Made by a program: the position numbers and the translations under genes. From an uncultured Chlamydiae bacterium (lineage in GTDB: Bacteria; Chlamydiota; Chlamydiia; Chlamydiales; Parachlamydiaceae), in the NCBI GenBank assembly GCA_963830365.1, contig CAWHMU010000035.1:30129-94128 (forward strand): a DNA stretch of 64,000 nt, written 5' to 3'. The first letter of the stretch is position 1; every line of letters starts with the position of its first letter. Shown piece by piece: positions 8,192-48,610 of this stretch. Under the pieces are notes generated by a model. The model had not been told where the DNA came from. It saw only the letters and a list, made by a program, of their open reading frames with translations, and searched no databases.

Positions 8192-9893
8192 ATGATACTT
8201 CGCACACTGCATAATCTCTTCGTTTTTTTAAGCTGCGCCTGCCTATGCCTGCCTGCTGGCTTATTTGCGGCCGGACATAAAATCAAAATCACCGATCGCG
8301 GCAGCACCTACCATGCTGATTACATCGTTGTCGGCGTTGGCGCGGCCGGCTCTGTGGTGGCCAAGATGCTCACTGATGATATGAAAACTTCTGTACTAGC
8401 GCTTGAAGCCGGCGAGAACCACAATGCCGATCCGGACATCCAACTGGCCATCAATGCCCCGTTAGTAGGTTATGAAGATAAAGCCGAATATTTCTGGCCG
8501 GGGGAAACCATTGGCGAGCCTGGACTTAACGGACGCGCTACCGATTGGACAACCGGACGCCTGCTGGGTGGAGGTTCTGCCGTCAATACCCTATTCTACT
8601 GCCGCGGCACAGGCCAGTTGTATAAAGGCTGGGAACAAGTTGCCGGTGCGCGCTGGTCCGCCGACAACATGTTCAACATTGCCAAGTCATTGGAAAACTT
8701 CTCCGGCCTGCCAGGTAATTTCAATCCTGCTGCCCACGGCAGCGGCGGATTGGTTGACATCCGCCAAGCTCCGGCGCAGCCCACAGCGTTGGCATTGGCA
8801 CTAACCAATACACTGGCCACTGCGGCCGCTGTGCCAATCCTTACCGACTACAATGACCCTGCCACTCCCATCGGCGTCAGCCCCTACATGCAATATTTCC
8901 AAAATGGCCCAGCCGGACAATACCGCGTGAGTGCGGCCACGGCCTTTCTGAATGACAGGGTAATGGCAGCCAATGGCATCGGCATCGATAAACGGCGGCT
9001 GCTGGTGCTAATGCGCTCTACCGCCTTAAAGATTTTATGGAGTAGAAATACAGCCAGCGGCATCGAATTTTTGAAAGACGGCGTGCTCTTAAAAGCCTAT
9101 GCCAACAAAGGCGTCATCCTGTGTGCAGGCATCAACAGCTGCACACTGCTGCAGCATTCAGGCATCGGCCCTGAAAGAACTGCTCGCCGCTTATAGTATC
9201 CCCCTCAAATTTGCCAATCCCAATGTCGGGGAAAATGTCAAAGACCACGCCAACATGGTCGTGCTCTTCGACACACCGCCCGAAACACCTCTCGTGCCAC
9301 CAAACGATCCCAATGCCTTTGCCCAACTCGTTGGCTGGCTGCCCGACCCGGCAGCAAATGCCGATAAAAATGCCCGTGCCGTCGAAATCATCACCTATGC
9401 TTTCCTGCCAAATACGCTGGCCTTGGGAGTTATCCCATTAAACCCTCAAAGCCTGGGCAGCGTGCGCATTCAAAGCTCAGACCCGCTGCAATTGCCCCTG
9501 GCTGATCCTTGCATTTTCAGCCAAACGGCCGATATGGACTTGCTGGTACGGGTCTTTAGAGCTTATATACAGCCGATCATGAATTATCTCATCAGCCAGA
9601 GCTTCACTCCCATAGGACTGACCAATGCCATCATCGACGATACCGTCCAGCTGGAACAATTTATCCGCAACCAGATCAACCTTTATGGTGGCATTCACAA
9701 CTACATGGGCATGGCGCGCATGGCACCCTTGGGCCAAGGCGGCGTTGTCGATCAGTACGGACGGGTTTATGGCGTGAAAAATCTGTTTGTAGCCGATAAT
9801 TCGATAGCCCCGGCCATCATAGACGGATCAACCACCTCTCCCGCCCTCATCATTGGCTATAATATTGCCCAGGGCATCCTGGAGCTGCAGTGA
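8192..9893 (+). pseudogene. GMC-family FAD oxidoreductase split by a frameshift at ~9173
   Basis: ORF 8192-9196 has a signal peptide, DYIVVGVGAAGSVVA and GRLLGGGSAVN. ORF 9099-9893 has NVGENVKDH and GVVDQYGRVYGVKNLFVADNS. Removing one base in CCT-G-AAA-GAA restores SGIGPKELL. Confidence 0.8.
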
Positions 9894-9945: not shown

Positions 9946-10182
9946 CAACGCAAGGGAACAGCCAAAAGACGCAAAGGTGCAGAGGAAAGCAATTCACCAC
10001 AGAGGCACCGAGACACAGAGAAACAAGCCGCATATAACAGGATGGCAAGATAGACAGGATAAGCGTAGCAGGATAGAAAAAAGCCATCCTGTTATATGCG
10101 GCTTGCTTCTCTGTGTCTCGGTGCCTCTGTGGTTTGAATTGCCTTCCTTAGCGTCTTTTGCGCCTTATGCCGCTTTGCGTTG
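9946..10182. repeat. Large nested palindrome between convergent genes
   Basis: 9989-10046 pairs almost perfectly with 10083-10142 (CACAGAG-type arms). Outer CGCAAAG-type arms; ACAGGAT repeats at and inside the loop. Confidence 0.9.
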
Positions 10183-16190: not shown

Positions 16191-16253
16191 ACAGTCCCTT
16201 ACATAGCATGTAGCCACAGATGTCAAAATAAAAAACATTGCATGTGTATTTCC

Positions 16254-17349
16254 TTGCGTAGTCGCGCCTCCTCCGCATCTCTGCGCTAAATTTTTTAGAA
16301 AGTAGCACTAATAGGAAAACTTGAATCATTGTACCCAGTCAATGGTCTGTGAATCCGATTCCAACGCAGAGACGCAGAGGAAACGCGACGACGCAACGAA
16401 CTGCCGAGATGTGGAGTTTAACTGGATCTTTATGAATTAGAACGATGCAACGCAGAGGCACAGAGGACACGAAGAGTAGACTAAGGTATGTATGTGGACG
16501 TGTTTCATACTCTTAACATGGCAGCAGTTTGCCTGCCATCGTCTCTCCGTGTTCTCTGTGCCTCTGTGTTTCAAACTTTAGAAAAACTTGAATCATTAAG
16601 TTTAGTCAATGGTCTGTAAATCCGATTCCAACGCAGAGACGCAGAGGAAACGCGACGACGCAATGAACTGCCGAGATGTGGAGTTTAACTGGATCTTTAT
16701 GAATTAGAACGATGCAACACAGAGGCACAGAGGACACGGAGAGTAGACTAAGGTATGAGTGTGGGCATGTTTCATACTCGTAACATGGCAGCAGTTTGCC
16801 TGCCATCGTCTCTCAGTGTTCTCTCTGCCTCTGTGTTTCAAACTTTAGAAAAACTTGAATCATTAAGTTTAGTCAATGGTCTGTGAATCCGATTCCAACG
16901 CAGAGACGCAGAGGAAACGCGACGACGCAACGAACTGCCGAGATGTGGAGTTTAACTGGATCTTTATGAATTAGAACGATGAAACACAGAGGCACAGAGG
17001 ACACGGAGAGTAGACTAAGGTATGTGTGTGGGCATGTTTCATACTCTTAACATGGCAGCAGTTTGCCTGCCATCGTCTCTCCGTGTTCTCTGTGCCTCTG
17101 TGTTTCAAACTTTAGAAAAACTTGAATCATTAAGTTTAGTCAATGGTCTGTGAATCCGATTCCAACGCAGAGACGCAGAGGACACGGAGAGTAGACTAAG
17201 GTATGTATGTGGACGTGTTTCATACTCTTAACATGGCAGCAGTTTGCCTGCCATCGTCTCTCCGTGTTCTCTGTGCCTCTGTGTTTCAAACTTTAAAAAA
17301 ACTTGAATCATTAAGTTTAGTCAATGGTCTGTGTATCCGATTCCAACGC
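16254..17349. repeat. Tandem array of 267-bp palindromic units: three full units, one 181-bp deleted unit and a partial unit, preceded by a complementary arm
   Basis: AAAACTTGAATCATT recurs at 16316, 16583, 16850, 17117 and 17298 (spacing 267, 267, 267, 181). 16254-16287 is the approximate reverse complement of 16363-16396. Confidence 0.95.
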
Positions 17350-17608
17350 CGTATTCACGGCTAACTTAAAATTCTTAACGCTTGATTTTTAGATGCACGA
17401 AATTAAACCAATAGACCACGCATCGGGGATGTATTTATTGGACGATCCTGAATTTTCCCTGTTTTGCTGTTGTTTAATATTTTTAAATCTATTAGCTTGG
17501 CTTTTTTAAAAGATTTTTAGCGTTTCTCACAGACTGTTTTACGCTATGATAATTGAAAGTTCCCTAATTTCATTTACCAAGTCGAGATGTCTACACATGA
17601 TTATGAAT

Positions 17609-18592
17609 ATGAAGAGAAAATTTCATTTCCTGATAGCAGCGCTTTTGATAGCGAATACCCTCTGTTCGGCCGCATTAGACCCTATGCCTACAGATGCAGC
17701 CTTCCCATGGAATTTTGATTTACCGGATAACACCTATCACAAGTTCTGTAAAAACATATATTCCCAGAATGGCGAAGACGGCATTATCGAGCAGCTGTTA
17801 AAAGAGTTGGAAATCCATGAAGGGACCTTCTGTGAATTCGGTGCCTCAAATGGCATAGCTTCCAGCAACACCTACAACCTGATTAAAAATTTCAATTTTT
17901 CCGGGATAGAGATTGAAATGAACAGATCGCGCTTCCAACAATGCGTCAATAATTATAAAGCGTATCCCAATGTTCAAGTATTTCATGGTCCAGTTTTATA
18001 CGGCCATAAGAAATTCAACCTTAATACCTGGTTGAAAAAGGGGAATTTGCCATCCGATCTCGACCTGCTCAGCATTGATATCGATTGCGATGACTATTAC
18101 GTTTGGGATGATCTAACTGAATATGCGCCAAAAATTGTTGTCATTGAGGCGAATTCCTACCGGGACCCAGTCTACCAAGAACTGCCAAGAAAGCCTTCAC
18201 AGGAATACAACCTAGACCCGCTCAAGCAATGGTTTCCGGAACGCATTGCCCTTGGTTGCAGTTTCATATCAGCCGTTGAACTGGGCCTGAAAAAAGGCTA
18301 TATTCCCGTGTCTTTCACCGGCAATCTTACCTTTGTAAGAAAAGATTTAATCCATAAACTGCATGATTTTCCATATATCATCTCTGACGATCCATATGAC
18401 TATATCACGCTTTATACCCCCTTGGTACTATGGGGCGACAAGTGGTACACCAACACAGGCTTGCTTTTCAATACGGCCATACGCGACTACTACCAGATAT
18501 TTAAAATTAAACATATTGATGCAGATTGGATAAAAGCCAGAATGAATCAAATATTGAATAGCAGCAACGATACCAGTCGGATTGGCTTTTAG
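17609..18592 (+). CDS. FkbM-like SAM methyltransferase-fold protein with signal peptide
   Basis: MKRKFHFLIAALLIANTLCSA signal; YSQNGEDGII, FCEFGASNG, LLSIDIDCDDYYVW. Alternative upstream starts at 17546-17603. Confidence 0.7.
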   Translation: MKRKFHFLIAALLIANTLCSAALDPMPTDAAFPWNFDLPDNTYHKFCKNIYSQNGEDGIIEQLLKELEIHEGTFCEFGASNGIASSNTYNLIKNFNFSGIEIEMNRSRFQQCVNNYKAYPNVQVFHGPVLYGHKKFNLNTWLKKGNLPSDLDLLSIDIDCDDYYVWDDLTEYAPKIVVIEANSYRDPVYQELPRKPSQEYNLDPLKQWFPERIALGCSFISAVELGLKKGYIPVSFTGNLTFVRKDLIHKLHDFPYIISDDPYDYITLYTPLVLWGDKWYTNTGLLFNTAIRDYYQIFKIKHIDADWIKARMNQILNSSNDTSRIGF

Positions 18593-40356: not shown

Positions 40357-42162
40357 CAGGGCTTTTTCATTAAAAATACTTTACACTCTTCATGCCGCCC
40401 CTGCGGGTACAAGCTGCGCTTGATGCTCTAGGCCGGCAGTCGTCTACTCGAGCTGGTAAACCTCGCTCCCGCTGCTCACTTCCTTGATAAACTTGTTTAA
40501 CAGTTCAAGCACATAGTGATCATTCCACATTGCCTTGCGTTGTTTTGATGCCAAACCGCGTCCTTGCACTGTTTCCTGTTTTAAAATGCAATAGGCCATC
40601 CGTCTAAAGAGACCTAGATTCTCCGCTGCATGGCCAGTATTGGCCCGGGAGATATCATCACCGAATAACACATCTAAAACCCAATGAAGATTATTCTCAA
40701 TCCCCCAGTGTGAGCGAACAGTGCTGTTCGCCATCTTCGCAGTCATATCCTTGCTGGAAATGTAGTAGCGAAGTTCTTCTGTAGATTTACCCTTGATCGT
40801 CCTAGTGGATTTCACTTCTATCAGCATCTTAAGATCCCGCCAATCACTTCGACAATCCAGCCAATTGAGATTTTTGGTGATTGTCACCTCTCGCTTCTCT
40901 AGCCTGCCGTGTCCTTCATTGGTCGCTTCATACTTTTTACACTTAGCCCCCTTATAATCAGCTGCTCTGGCTTGATCAAAAAAATTCTGGGCCTCAGCAT
41001 GTAGAGTGTCTTGGTTTCCTTTTAAGGCAATCACATAATGCCCTCCGCGCTCCCTGATGTCATTTACAATGCCTTTTTGGCACCCCATCGCATCAATTGT
41101 GACCGTCGCATCCTTGACATCGATTACCTTTAGCAACTCTGGAATTGCCGTGATCTCATTGGATTTTTCCTCTGTTTTCACTTGACCAAGCAGAAGCCCA
41201 CTTCCAGACTCGTATCCGCTCACGTAATGAACAAGATCCTTTTTGGCACCTCTCAGAGTTTTCCCGTCGATAGAGATTTTTTTCTCAGTGCCGCCCAAGG
41301 TGTCAGCCACCAACTTAATCCATTTAATGAATGCCTGGTTCAAGATTTCAGGGTTTGTTCGCGTCAGGATCCACCAAAAGGCGGTATAGGAAGGGTGTCG
41401 TTCGAGATTAAGTAAAGGGCATAACATGGCAGCTTTTTCCTTTCCATACTCGTAAATACCACTGATGGACTTTGCGCCTGCAAGAATACCCGCCAGAATC
41501 GTTAGCAGAAGTCCATAGAATGGATATTGCAGATTATCTGCGACGCGCGGATCCTGAACGTCCGCAAAAGCATGTTTTACAGCATCCTCGTAAGAGTGAA
41601 TATCGACATTTTGATCGTGTTCGTCGTAGATGAATTTCTTTCTTACTGACATGTTTTCGCCCTCAAAATCCCCCGTAGCAATTTGAAGATCTCCAGTATC
41701 GGGATCCTGAGAATTCGCTGTCAACTTATTAGCTTCGACAAGTGAAGGACTGGAGTCACCTGAAGGATTAGGGGCTGTCTGAGAAATTGCCTTGCGCCGT
41801 TTTTTTGCGTCTTTCAGCGTCTGACGCCAGAATACGACTTCCTCATTAGTGAGTTTACCCAATTTAAGTACGATTTCTTTCCGGCATGAGCCGTTTGTCC
41901 AAATGGATCTAGCAAGGCTATAGGAGACATACTTCTTGCCCTTAGAGGTAAATGCACCCCAGTTTAGATGTAGATCTACCAGATTCATCGACATATTAGA
42001 CCATATATTTATTTAAAACACCTTGTAATATACGTGATAAATAAAGTCAATTGTTTTTTTATGTATTAGGCTAGATATATGAGAATAAAAATGGCGAAAT
42101 CGCCTTAGAGCTGGCTGTGAGTGGAATTTTTGGTGTTAAATTTCTTTAATGAAAAAGCCCTG
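40357..42162 (-). mobile_element. ISAs1-family insertion sequence, 1806 bp
   Basis: 18-bp terminal inverted repeats CAGGGCTTTTTCATTAAA; 10-bp target duplication GGGATATACA at 40347-40356 and 42163-42172. Confidence 0.95.
40444..41994 (-). CDS. ISAs1-family transposase with ~125-aa N-terminal extension
   Basis: DPR, ISIDGKTLRG, EKSNEITAIPELL, TIDAMGCQ, LKGNQ, HGRLEKR, RSHWGIENNLHWVLDV. Confidence 0.95.
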   Translation of the reverse strand: MSMNLVDLHLNWGAFTSKGKKYVSYSLARSIWTNGSCRKEIVLKLGKLTNEEVVFWRQTLKDAKKRRKAISQTAPNPSGDSSPSLVEANKLTANSQDPDTGDLQIATGDFEGENMSVRKKFIYDEHDQNVDIHSYEDAVKHAFADVQDPRVADNLQYPFYGLLLTILAGILAGAKSISGIYEYGKEKAAMLCPLLNLERHPSYTAFWWILTRTNPEILNQAFIKWIKLVADTLGGTEKKISIDGKTLRGAKKDLVHYVSGYESGSGLLLGQVKTEEKSNEITAIPELLKVIDVKDATVTIDAMGCQKGIVNDIRERGGHYVIALKGNQDTLHAEAQNFFDQARAADYKGAKCKKYEATNEGHGRLEKREVTITKNLNWLDCRSDWRDLKMLIEVKSTRTIKGKSTEELRYYISSKDMTAKMANSTVRSHWGIENNLHWVLDVLFGDDISRANTGHAAENLGLFRRMAYCILKQETVQGRGLASKQRKAMWNDHYVLELLNKFIKEVSSGSEVYQLE

Positions 42163-43356: not shown

Positions 43357-44646
43357 TTACCCTTGCTCGGATTCAAAGCGCCTATGGTCAAGCTCATCAG
43401 TTGACAGATAGGCTTTATACATGCGCGTGATGTCGAGCATGGAGTCGACAGAATGCTTGTTATCGACATAGTCCATCAAGCTGGCAAGCATCTCTGCCCG
43501 TTCTTTTGGATTGGCTGGCAAATACTGATTGATTAAACCCACGAGTTGGGTAAGCAGGGGTTTGATATCCTCATGCACATCGGTGTTGCCTGCCAGCAGG
43601 CTGGACAATTCCTCACCAGCCATACCGCCGTAGGCCGCGCGATAGACCATATTCAAGGCCATGATGGTCAGCATCAGTCGGATCAGATTATCCTGCTTGG
43701 CGCGCTCACCATCGGCAGGCTGTGTGTCCAAGCTTGGATATTGAACTATTGTCAAGATACTTTTGGCATAATTCTTGGCAAAATCAAGGTCCTGCAGCGG
43801 TTTGCCGCCGCCGGCAGCGGCCTCTTCAACGGTATCGTTGGTGGCTTTATAGACAGCGCCACCATTCAGGAGGGCGGCGATCAAGGCGGCAGCGGCTTGA
43901 TAATCTCCCGGCAGACCGGAGCTTGGTCCGGCAGCAAACAGCGCATCGGCTACCGGGCTGACACTAATTTGAGAGCCTGCAGTAGGTCCATGCAAAATAT
44001 CGGCATTGACGATCAAGGCGCCAGCGATGAATGTCGAAGAAGGATAATCGAGAGGAGCGGCTGCCAAAGGATTGATGATGGCTCCGGCGGACTGATCGAG
44101 TGGAGCGATGATCCAGCGATCGAACGTCTTGCTAAATTTGTCAGTCAAGGCACTAACGCCATCGATTTCTTTGGCTTTCTGACTCACCGTCATGGTCATC
44201 AAAAAAGCATAATATTCGGCGGCCGATTTAGGACCGCCGCTGGCCTCGATTTTTTGAATCCAGTGGTGAATGTCGTCTTTGCGAGCCAGTTCGGCCATCT
44301 CTTCGACGCGTTTAATGAATGCATCCCACATGCTATTAATGATGTCATGCTTTGTCTCTTCGACGTGCCTGGCCAGAATGAAGGCGGCGTCTTTAGTAAT
44401 GATGTGATTAGCCGCCAAATTCTGAAAGCTTGTGGTCAGATTTTGTTCCGGAGACTGCAATAGCGGAAATTCGGCGGCAAGCATCATAGTTAAAGCTTCC
44501 AGCTCGCTTTGTTCTATGGATGATTTGTAAAAGATTTCCCGGCGGCGGTGCTGGGTTGAAGCTGAGTTATCCGGGATTATTTCAGGACCGCCCACTAACT
44601 GAGGATCCGGATTTTGCGTACCAAAACCACTGATATTGTCGTCCAT
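43357..44646 (-). CDS. Hypothetical protein (Ala-rich, helical; effector- or translocator-like)
   Basis: ~429-aa ORF, ATG after GGAGG; polar N-terminus and two hydrophobic stretches; no family recognised. Confidence 0.7.
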   Translation of the reverse strand: MDDNISGFGTQNPDPQLVGGPEIIPDNSASTQHRRREIFYKSSIEQSELEALTMMLAAEFPLLQSPEQNLTTSFQNLAANHIITKDAAFILARHVEETKHDIINSMWDAFIKRVEEMAELARKDDIHHWIQKIEASGGPKSAAEYYAFLMTMTVSQKAKEIDGVSALTDKFSKTFDRWIIAPLDQSAGAIINPLAAAPLDYPSSTFIAGALIVNADILHGPTAGSQISVSPVADALFAAGPSSGLPGDYQAAAALIAALLNGGAVYKATNDTVEEAAAGGGKPLQDLDFAKNYAKSILTIVQYPSLDTQPADGERAKQDNLIRLMLTIMALNMVYRAAYGGMAGEELSSLLAGNTDVHEDIKPLLTQLVGLINQYLPANPKERAEMLASLMDYVDNKHSVDSMLDITRMYKAYLSTDELDHRRFESEQG

Positions 44647-44817
44647 AACCTTTATCCTCCGTTGCTCATTTACAGCTTGGTGCATAAGTTTATGCGGGCA
44701 TATGACTGGATGGGAAAAGCAATACGCGCAGTCAACATATCCAGCTAGATAATACCCTATCCTTATTGTATCAAATATTTATTTAATTATACATAATTAT
44801 ATCCTTCGCTTAAGTCT

Positions 44818-47358: not shown

Positions 47359-47389
47359 AGTTTATCCAAAAGCCACTTGCAATTCTCGT

Positions 47390-47493
47390 TGCGTCTCTGC
47401 GTTGATGTTCCGGAATACATTATTGCAAGTAAAAATTGAATCATTGTACTTAGCCAACAACTAATGAATCCGCTTCAACGCAGAGACGCAGAG
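47390..47493. repeat. CGCAGAG-type palindrome with TGAATC-box loop
   Basis: 16-bp perfect stem TGCGTCTCTGCGTTGA / TCAACGCAGAGACGCA; the loop resembles the start of the 267-bp unit. Confidence 0.88.
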
Positions 47494-48212: not shown

Positions 48213-48356
48213 GGCCATGTTCACCTTCATAGGAAAACTTTCGGTCACGATGATACTATCTTCTCTCCGTGCTCTCTGTGCCTCTGTGTTTCAAAAAAAT
48301 CAAACACAGAGGCACAGAGAGCACGGAGCAAGAAATTGACCGGTTGGGTGAACAAC
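48213..48356 (+). repeat. 144-bp MITE-like palindromic element, copy 1
   Basis: 27-bp perfect internal stem CTCCGTGCTCTCTGTGCCTCTGTGTTT; outer TGTTCACC/GGTGAACA; near-identical inverted copy at 54616-54758. Confidence 0.92.
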
Positions 48357-48610
48357 GCCCAAAAAAGCCTAGTGTAAGTGTCGATTAAACGGATTGAAGC
48401 CGTTGATTTAAAAGGAGGCACGCCTCCTATACACGCTCGTAATTAGCGACTTACGCCATGTTTCTCTAAGAACATGCATTGACTTTAATATGTCCATTAT
48501 TTGCGAGCAACAACAATTAAAAACATCCTGCGAATTAAAATACATTTCACTTTAACAATTTGTATTTTATAATAATAACTAGACACAGACTTATAAATAT
48601 AAGGCTATGT

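Follow-up and report, generated by a model that had tools for sequence, protein, structure and literature searches.

A hairpin array in a Parachlamydiaceae genome as a probable head-to-tail expansion of dispersed repeats whose arms also frame GxxExxY genes

Introduction

Between an M18 aminopeptidase gene and a block of glycan-modification genes, an uncultured member of the Parachlamydiaceae carries a cluster of tandem units that fold into strong hairpins. What the units are made of, how they multiplied and whether the cluster has a role of its own are the questions raised by this locus. An earlier note, made from the DNA letters alone, described the local amplification of a structured non-coding element, perhaps processed into repeated RNAs or serving as the integration scaffold of the adjoining glycan island. 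Here, we dissect the cluster and trace its parts through the genome that carries it (label G000; 2.73 Mb, 48 contigs, 82% complete), through relatives and through other phyla. The window is the whole stretch of DNA analysed, 64,000 nucleotides long, and all coordinates given without a contig name refer to it.

Results and discussion

Architecture of the array

The tandem array consists of three units of 267 bp, one of 181 bp and a 56-bp stub. Tandem Repeats Finder reported a period of 267 x 3.3 at 16312-17186 (95% matches) and a period of 181 x 2.0 at 16983-17349, and together with the unit coordinates this bears out the full-length, shortened fourth and partial fifth units that had been described from inspection. 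The features of the array are as follows (units on the plus strand, other features without strand):

16254..17349, the composite cluster as a whole, lying between the M18 aminopeptidase gene (end 16190) and the first island ORF (start 17546)
16312..16578 (+), unit 1, 267 bp: right part of the A spacer, A right arm, tail and element B
16579..16845 (+), unit 2, 267 bp; six substitutions seen in this unit only, two of them breaking the B stem
16846..17112 (+), unit 3, 267 bp; has the best stem, formed by arms 16980-17010 and 17077-17107
17113..17293 (+), unit 4, 181 bp: an 86-bp deletion joins the A right arm to the B left arm
17176..17183, deletion junction, within a 7-base stretch common to two same-facing arms
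17294..17349 (+), unit 5 stub, 56 bp; ends at the outer start of the A right arm

Any two units differ at 3-18 sites, and no exact repeat exceeds 117 bp. Variants are common to units 1 and 4, and to units 2 and 3; the first small loop, singled out earlier as the most variable spot, follows this pattern correctly. The 86-bp deletion noticed in the fourth unit was likewise recovered, with the break mapped to the 7-base shared stretch at 17176-17183. Each unit also contains a 43-codon frame, which was rejected as coding sequence: every site that differs among units 1-3 alters a residue, in agreement with the initial view that no convincing ORF is present.

Each unit joins parts of two dispersed repeats

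Rather than standing alone as a structured element, the array is built from two repeats, here called A and B: every unit combines parts of both, and their arms recur throughout the genome. The arms are direct runs of an 8-base unit (CRCAGAG) and can pair only with a second arm. The elements and the sequences that flank them are listed below (none with an assigned strand):

16203..16218, left flank: fragment of a different, GTAG-containing palindromic repeat family (8 genome matches with at most 1 mismatch)
16223..16253, linker also present in element-A composites of contigs C43 and C33
16254..16396, element A, complete copy of a dispersed family: outward-facing arms 16254-16287 and 16363-16396 with a conserved 75-base spacer between them
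16397..16437, element A tail, common to copies on contigs C43, C18, C45 and C33
16446..16573, element B in unit 1: inward-facing arms and a 66-base core found only in the array
17348..17410, right flank: distal part of the GTAG-containing repeat family (first 19 bases: 33 genome matches with at most 1 mismatch)
9996..10133, single dispersed inward arm pair of the array's family
47387..47493, another element-A-type copy

Element A has at least 10 related copies in the genome. The 267-bp unit spans from within the A spacer to the end of B, and this extent explains the CGCAGAG arm that had been called an orphan: the arm is real, but it is the right arm of a complete dispersed element, of which 16254-16396 is the first full copy. 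Searching the genome with one unit gave three heavily matched segments, all of them arms, while the B core matched the array only. Fragments of the third family, the GTAG-containing palindrome, lie on both sides of the cluster. Among 40 relatives, none matches the array unit beyond the arms, and exact-pattern scans of metagenome contigs returned no match.

A genome-wide, mostly intergenic arm family

The arm motif has 297 exact matches in the genome, compared with 11 for a reversed control, and both arms of the unit match the genome dozens of times. The arms are grouped in 201 clusters. ORFs of at least 150 aa cover 78.5% of the genome, yet contain only 22 of the 398 arms.

The arms also recur in tandem. 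Thirty distinct tandem arrays with a period of at least 50 were found in the genome, five of which carry the array's arm family (164 x 12.9, 165 x 9.9, 267 x 3.3, 104 x 3.1 and 160 x 2.1); one further array has a second arm type, and in another five the repeats are of other families. Since other repeat families are also found in tandem arrays, tandem growth is common in this genome and not peculiar to the arm family. On contig C20 (4599-6721), thirteen near-identical 164-bp units (98% matches) of the array's arm family form an array with no adjoining GxxExxY gene.

In the 67 inward-facing elements that lie outside arrays, the two arms of an element, with their flanks, are more alike than are arms and flanks taken from different loci (no permutation out of 2000 scored as high). 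This likeness fits hairpin maintenance and templated copying alike, and does not choose between them.

The arms bracket GxxExxY genes

Two GxxExxY genes are present in the genome. The one on contig C42 adjoins a 165-bp array of the same arms as those of the 267-bp array. The second (contig C45, 196155-197235) is bracketed by a different arm type, which has 64 genome matches, and is followed by a 151-bp x 4.5 array of that type. At the C42 locus (125384-127600), ten 165-bp units run directly into the gene and one further unit lies after it; by eye, the loop and linker of each unit resemble the first bases of the neighbouring gene at the DNA level.

Inverted brackets scoring at least 30 were compared between GxxExxY genes and distal controls, and flank 18 of the 24 scored genes from this genome and its relatives against 0 of 21 controls (3 of 27 loci could not be scored). 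For genes from other phyla, the tally is 46 of 73 against 0 of 68, where the loci are the best 80 of 556 by similarity to the C42 protein, not a random sample, and 7 of the 80 could not be scored. Ordinary ORFs have such brackets in 9 of 400 cases.

The gene and the arms also occur together across genomes. In a sample of 251 genomes of the phylum (one, G045, unscored), a TIGR04256 gene at E 1e-25 or better is present in 25 of 26 arm-rich genomes, defined by at least 5 exact arm matches, vs 42 of 224 others; the genomes are kin, so that both these tallies and the Fisher values for co-occurrence overstate independence. G234 is the one arm-rich genome without a GxxExxY gene at this cut-off. The Y1 transposase, used as a control family, is found in 17 of 26 arm-rich genomes vs 67 of 224 others, and is missing from the remaining nine arm-rich genomes; Y1 transposases are thus enriched where arms abound but not required. 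Two genomes look like cases of recent spread of the gene or pieces of it: in G035, PF13366 matches number 67 and many are identical 3' fragments, and G267 has 12 TIGR04256 matches, many equal in score.

In another phylum, a Planctomyces homologue (L053, 79% identical to the C42 protein) has 31 of 31 bases of the array's B arm directly after its stop codon. Among 97 loci, only three share at least 20 bases with the B arm, and these belong to three of the four closest proteins to C42 (75-79% identity); overall, protein identity and arm match are weakly linked (rho 0.25). A quick tree, built from 128 columns and 99 rows of which one has an internal stop, places the C42 protein among Planctomycetota and Verrucomicrobiota rows (SH-aLRT 98), apart from the genes of the relatives. 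The protein alignment (A1) left out L056 and two identical duplicates (L049 and L058).

The C42 protein has 125 residues and scores 137 bits to TIGR04256 (cut-off 35), with PF13366 also above its cut-off. PF13366 is listed with function 'Unknown' in a passage of PMC3424549. A structural model of the protein (pLDDT 94) has a restriction-endonuclease-like, PD-(D/E)XK fold, and its best structure matches include 3ijm (Z 8.3, rmsd 3.3, 99 aligned), BpuSI (Z 8.1), the Cas4 protein SSO0001 (Z 7.9) and Hjc (Z 6.4). Foldseek gave no match to the model at E 0.001 or better, and when solved structures were searched by sequence, no hit was better than E 0.22. Catalytic-type residues are conserved in 96 sequences, D68 being invariant and E78 and K80 present in at least 90%. 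The shared fold, as predicted by the model, by itself shows no function.

In sum, the arms are genome-wide, mostly intergenic repeats that bracket GxxExxY genes, and both the unit junction of the array and its 86-bp deletion lie at arms. From these associations we infer that the arms may be DNA sites recognised by the GxxExxY protein, in a partnership like that of REPs and RAYTs but with a PD-(D/E)XK enzyme in place of the Y1 transposase. A search of open-access papers found no description of a link between GxxExxY genes and repeats. A test for gene remnants in the elements scored none of 83 cores, nor the array (best E 4.6), and does not support reading the elements as putative deleted derivatives of a gene cassette; the loop of the C42 array was the only one that looked, by eye, like the start of its neighbouring gene.

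Origin of the array

The reading that we favour is that the array arose by head-to-tail expansion of a two-hairpin composite, whose arms also frame GxxExxY genes, and that it probably grew stepwise through host recombination or slippage. A plausible series of events would begin when an element A landed within or next to another palindromic repeat, past the end of the aminopeptidase gene. An element B would then have replaced the end of the A tail, and rejoining of the B right arm to the A spacer would have produced the 267-bp unit. Later rounds may have duplicated, deleted and truncated units, the array growing by recombination or slippage between same-facing (direct-oriented) arms. The 86-bp deletion is a direct trace of one such event between same-facing arms, and the sharing of variants by units 1 and 4 and by units 2 and 3 fits several rounds better than a single rolling-circle burst. 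Beyond what any strong hairpin does at the end of a gene, the array itself is unlikely to have a selected function. The local amplification proposed in the earlier note therefore stands, although that description had missed that the amplified parts are dispersed repeats linked to a GxxExxY nuclease gene.

The main rival is amplification initiated by the nuclease, in which the GxxExxY enzyme would cut close to the outer side of the arms, with units then added by repair synthesis or by rolling-circle copying. Amplification of this kind has been modelled for RAYTs and BIMEs in passages of PMC3333891 and PMC2817692. Both GxxExxY genes adjoin an array of their own arm type, tandem arrays adjoin the genes in other phyla too (for example at L089, L092 and L104), and the acidic and lysine residues of catalytic type (D68, E78 and K80) are conserved. 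Several array ends fall within about 16-25 bases outside an arm, and the last unit, unit 5, breaks off at an arm's outer start; other array ends, however, are not beside arms. Moreover, arrays are also formed by other repeat families, the 267-bp array has no GxxExxY gene near it, and its units have diverged stepwise rather than being uniform. We therefore regard a nuclease-driven expansion of this array as unlikely. A wider proposal is somewhat better placed but still tentative: it is possible that the GxxExxY PD-(D/E)XK nuclease travels between phyla together with its own arms, recognises them and cuts beside them, and so seeds gene-less hairpins, spreads them and amplifies them in place into BIME-like arrays, the present one included, which would amount to a second, RAYT-independent repeat system found in many phyla.

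Transposases and MITEs

Part of the dispersal of the arms has another cause. The most uniform of the dispersed arm pairs (doublets) sit inside MITEs, and 104 of the 398 arms lie within MITE-like intervals with terminal repeats of their own, so that part of the dispersal is hitchhiking. Two copies of such a MITE lie in the window (no strand assigned):

48213..48359, MITE, 147 bp, with an 8-bp target duplication; carries an outward pair of B-type arms
54613..54758, other copy of the same MITE, 146 bp, with an 8-bp target duplication

For the first MITE type, an 8-bp target duplication accompanies 21 of the 27 terminal-repeat pairs. A second type shares its ends with a 1327-bp ISL3 element that is present in five copies. 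The inward-facing elements are of another kind: a flanking direct repeat of at least 7 bases was found in 1 of 67, with no excess over the shuffled mean of 1.5, so that these elements do not show the target-site duplication that, with terminal inverted repeats, defines a MITE. Near the array, ends of the first MITE type were looked for and not found.

The genome bears the marks of a large MITE burst. An ISL3-type family accounts for about 100 terminal-repeat pairs, and the 8-bp duplication is seen in 62 of 103; for another MITE family in the burst, no parent was found. The MITE subfamilies each hold a different captured hairpin repeat at their centre. A 1300-bp candidate parent of the first MITE was rejected as a chance pair within housekeeping genes, and no IS1595 transposase was found in the genome. 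Elsewhere in the window, an IS1634-family transposase (62311-63558) lies next to nested repeats at 61523-62025. Y1 transposase genes (L003-L010) are bracketed by inverted repeats of their own that differ from the arms, one family of which resembles the linker beside element-A copies.

The cluster could in principle have been built by a Y1/RAYT or ISL3-type transposase acting on the neighbouring repeats, with the arms as passengers. Such a history would suit the position of the cluster, wedged between fragments of the GTAG-containing palindrome, in a genome with nine Y1 matches and with an ISL3 element whose ends are those of arm-carrying MITEs. It is nevertheless quite improbable, as none of the nine Y1 matches has an arm in the flanks examined (the assembly being 82% complete, an unassembled copy is possible), 9 of the 26 arm-rich genomes have no Y1 match, first-type MITE ends were not found near the array, and the repeated unit contains no REP-type palindrome.

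Folding and the RNA reading

The stem of about 31 bp described earlier is present as quoted in unit 3 (arms 16980-17010 and 17077-17107, 31 bp, 97% complementary), and has two or three broken pairs in units 1 and 2. The fold of unit 3 is very stable (z = -6.4; 0 of 200 shuffles as stable). The three-way junction, in contrast, depends on the unit and on the energy model. Under RNA parameters, units 1 and 4 form the two small hairpins (pair probability 0.83-0.93), and there the proposed branching holds; it fails in unit 2, in which the first small hairpin is missing (pair probability 0.0), and in unit 3, in which the two small hairpins do not form (0.30 and 0.35).

That the array encodes repeated structured RNAs processed to unit length is very unlikely. 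The stability of the fold speaks for such a role, as do the greater resemblance of an element's two arms to each other than to the arms of other loci at dispersed sites and a weak promoter-like hexamer pair on the minus strand that recurs in four units (9 of 12 matches). The comparison of the units argues the other way. Five positions of the long stem vary: at four of them a pair is lost in at least one unit, at the fifth a wobble results, and no change among the units of the array is compensatory. The branched fold is not common to all units, the B core is found at the array locus only, and the two strands fold about equally well (-78 and -72 kcal/mol). Rfam gave no family at gathering score (22 matches at E up to 5, all far below it and all to microRNA-hairpin models), and no terminator-like site was found at the array. 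The suggested processing into repeated RNAs is thus unsupported, and the array is likely repeat clutter rather than a dedicated RNA.

An assembly artefact, which a bin of 48 contigs and 82% completeness might suggest, is also very improbable, as the units differ at 3-18 sites with no exact repeat longer than 117 bp, and the deletion and both ends form unique junctions (copy number or order could still be wrong).

The array and the glycan island

The genes at 17546-43347 are mostly sugar-nucleotide and methyltransferase genes, and 16191-43356 forms a glycan-modification block of about 27 kb between the M18 aminopeptidase gene and a gene at 43357-44685. In 7 of 19 informative relatives, a homologue of the latter (20-47% identity) lies at most 2.6 kb after the aminopeptidase gene; one of the 20 stretches compared (L146) ends just after that gene. 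The block is therefore an insert with the array at its left edge, as had been proposed for the position of the array.

It does not follow that the array is the scaffold on which the island integrated, a reading that starts from this edge position and is extremely unlikely: the left edge shares no significant repeat with the island interior or the right edge (best E 0.11), there is no tRNA at either edge, and no integrase family was found among 52 ORFs scanned. Of the seven relatives that lack the island at this place, six have no arm in the stretch after the aminopeptidase gene, and in the seventh the arm is at least 1.4 kb away. In three other relatives, a sister-type hairpin directly follows the aminopeptidase gene and no island gene lies in the 2.5 kb examined, so the end of this gene collects such repeats anyway.

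Several other features of the region were recorded. The first island ORF (17546-18592, 348 aa) has no Pfam or NCBIfam match and a 33% identical paralogous segment elsewhere on the contig. An ISAs1 transposase lies inside the block at 40444-41994. A GMC oxidoreductase at 8192-9893 appears as overlapping N- and C-terminal ORFs, pointing to a frameshift or an assembly error.

Significance and comparison with known systems

Taken alone, the array is an ordinary repeat expansion, and its value is that of a pointer to a likely repeat-nuclease partnership. Among bacterial palindromic repeats, an origin has been worked out for RAYT-linked REPs alone. In the present case, a repeat family is tied to another nuclease family, as yet uncharacterised, by bracketing, by co-occurrence measured against a Y1 control, and by an exact arm beside a close homologue in another phylum. 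An orphan enzyme family thereby gains a defined candidate substrate, and the question can be tested with one 125-residue protein and a few oligonucleotides.

CRISPR arrays resemble the locus in their regularly spaced palindromic repeats. The array differs from them in its 267-bp period, in having no unique spacers of the kind that separate 24-48-bp repeats, and in having no cas gene nearby; the cas1 gene of the genome lies on another contig with a short CRISPR-like array of its own (contig C40, 87418-89230). The ISL3-type MITEs are related to the arms in that some dispersed arm pairs sit inside MITEs with 8-bp target duplications, but the array has no such ends (first type checked) and the inward arm pairs have no target duplication.

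The REPtrons and TIRtrons described in passages of PMC2817692 and PMC3733652 likewise consist of a small gene bracketed by inverted repeats, with gene-less copies abundant in the genomes that carry them. The bracketed gene is a RAYT or TIRYT in those accounts, and a member of the GxxExxY enzyme family here.

The nearest likeness is to the BIME-2 and atypical BIMEs of E. coli and the tandem REPIN clusters of Pseudomonas fluorescens SBW25. Passages of PMC3333891 and PMC3116915 describe BIME and REPIN clusters in which near-identical units stand in tandem at a single locus, and an intergenic mosaic of inverted repeats with linkers is common to those clusters and the array. Further points in common with the systems as portrayed there are hundreds of dispersed copies and clusters beside a partner gene. 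The arm family accordingly has the high copy number and extragenic location of REPs and BIMEs, and the locus has the inverted doublets with linkers and the conserved tandem units of the definition given in a passage of PMC3333891. The arms, however, are short runs of an 8-base unit rather than self-palindromic, GTAG-tagged REPs, and lack the 20-40-nt self-palindrome with terminal GTAG or CGTC by which those excerpts delimit REPs. The framed gene encodes a PD-(D/E)XK-fold protein rather than the Y1 HUH transposase of those accounts, and none of the 9 Y1 matches in the 82% complete assembly has the repeat in the flanks examined, as a cognate RAYT (Y1) gene would. The array is thus ordinary in kind, and the repeat family together with its partner is a variant of the REP/RAYT theme, with a mechanism that we infer.
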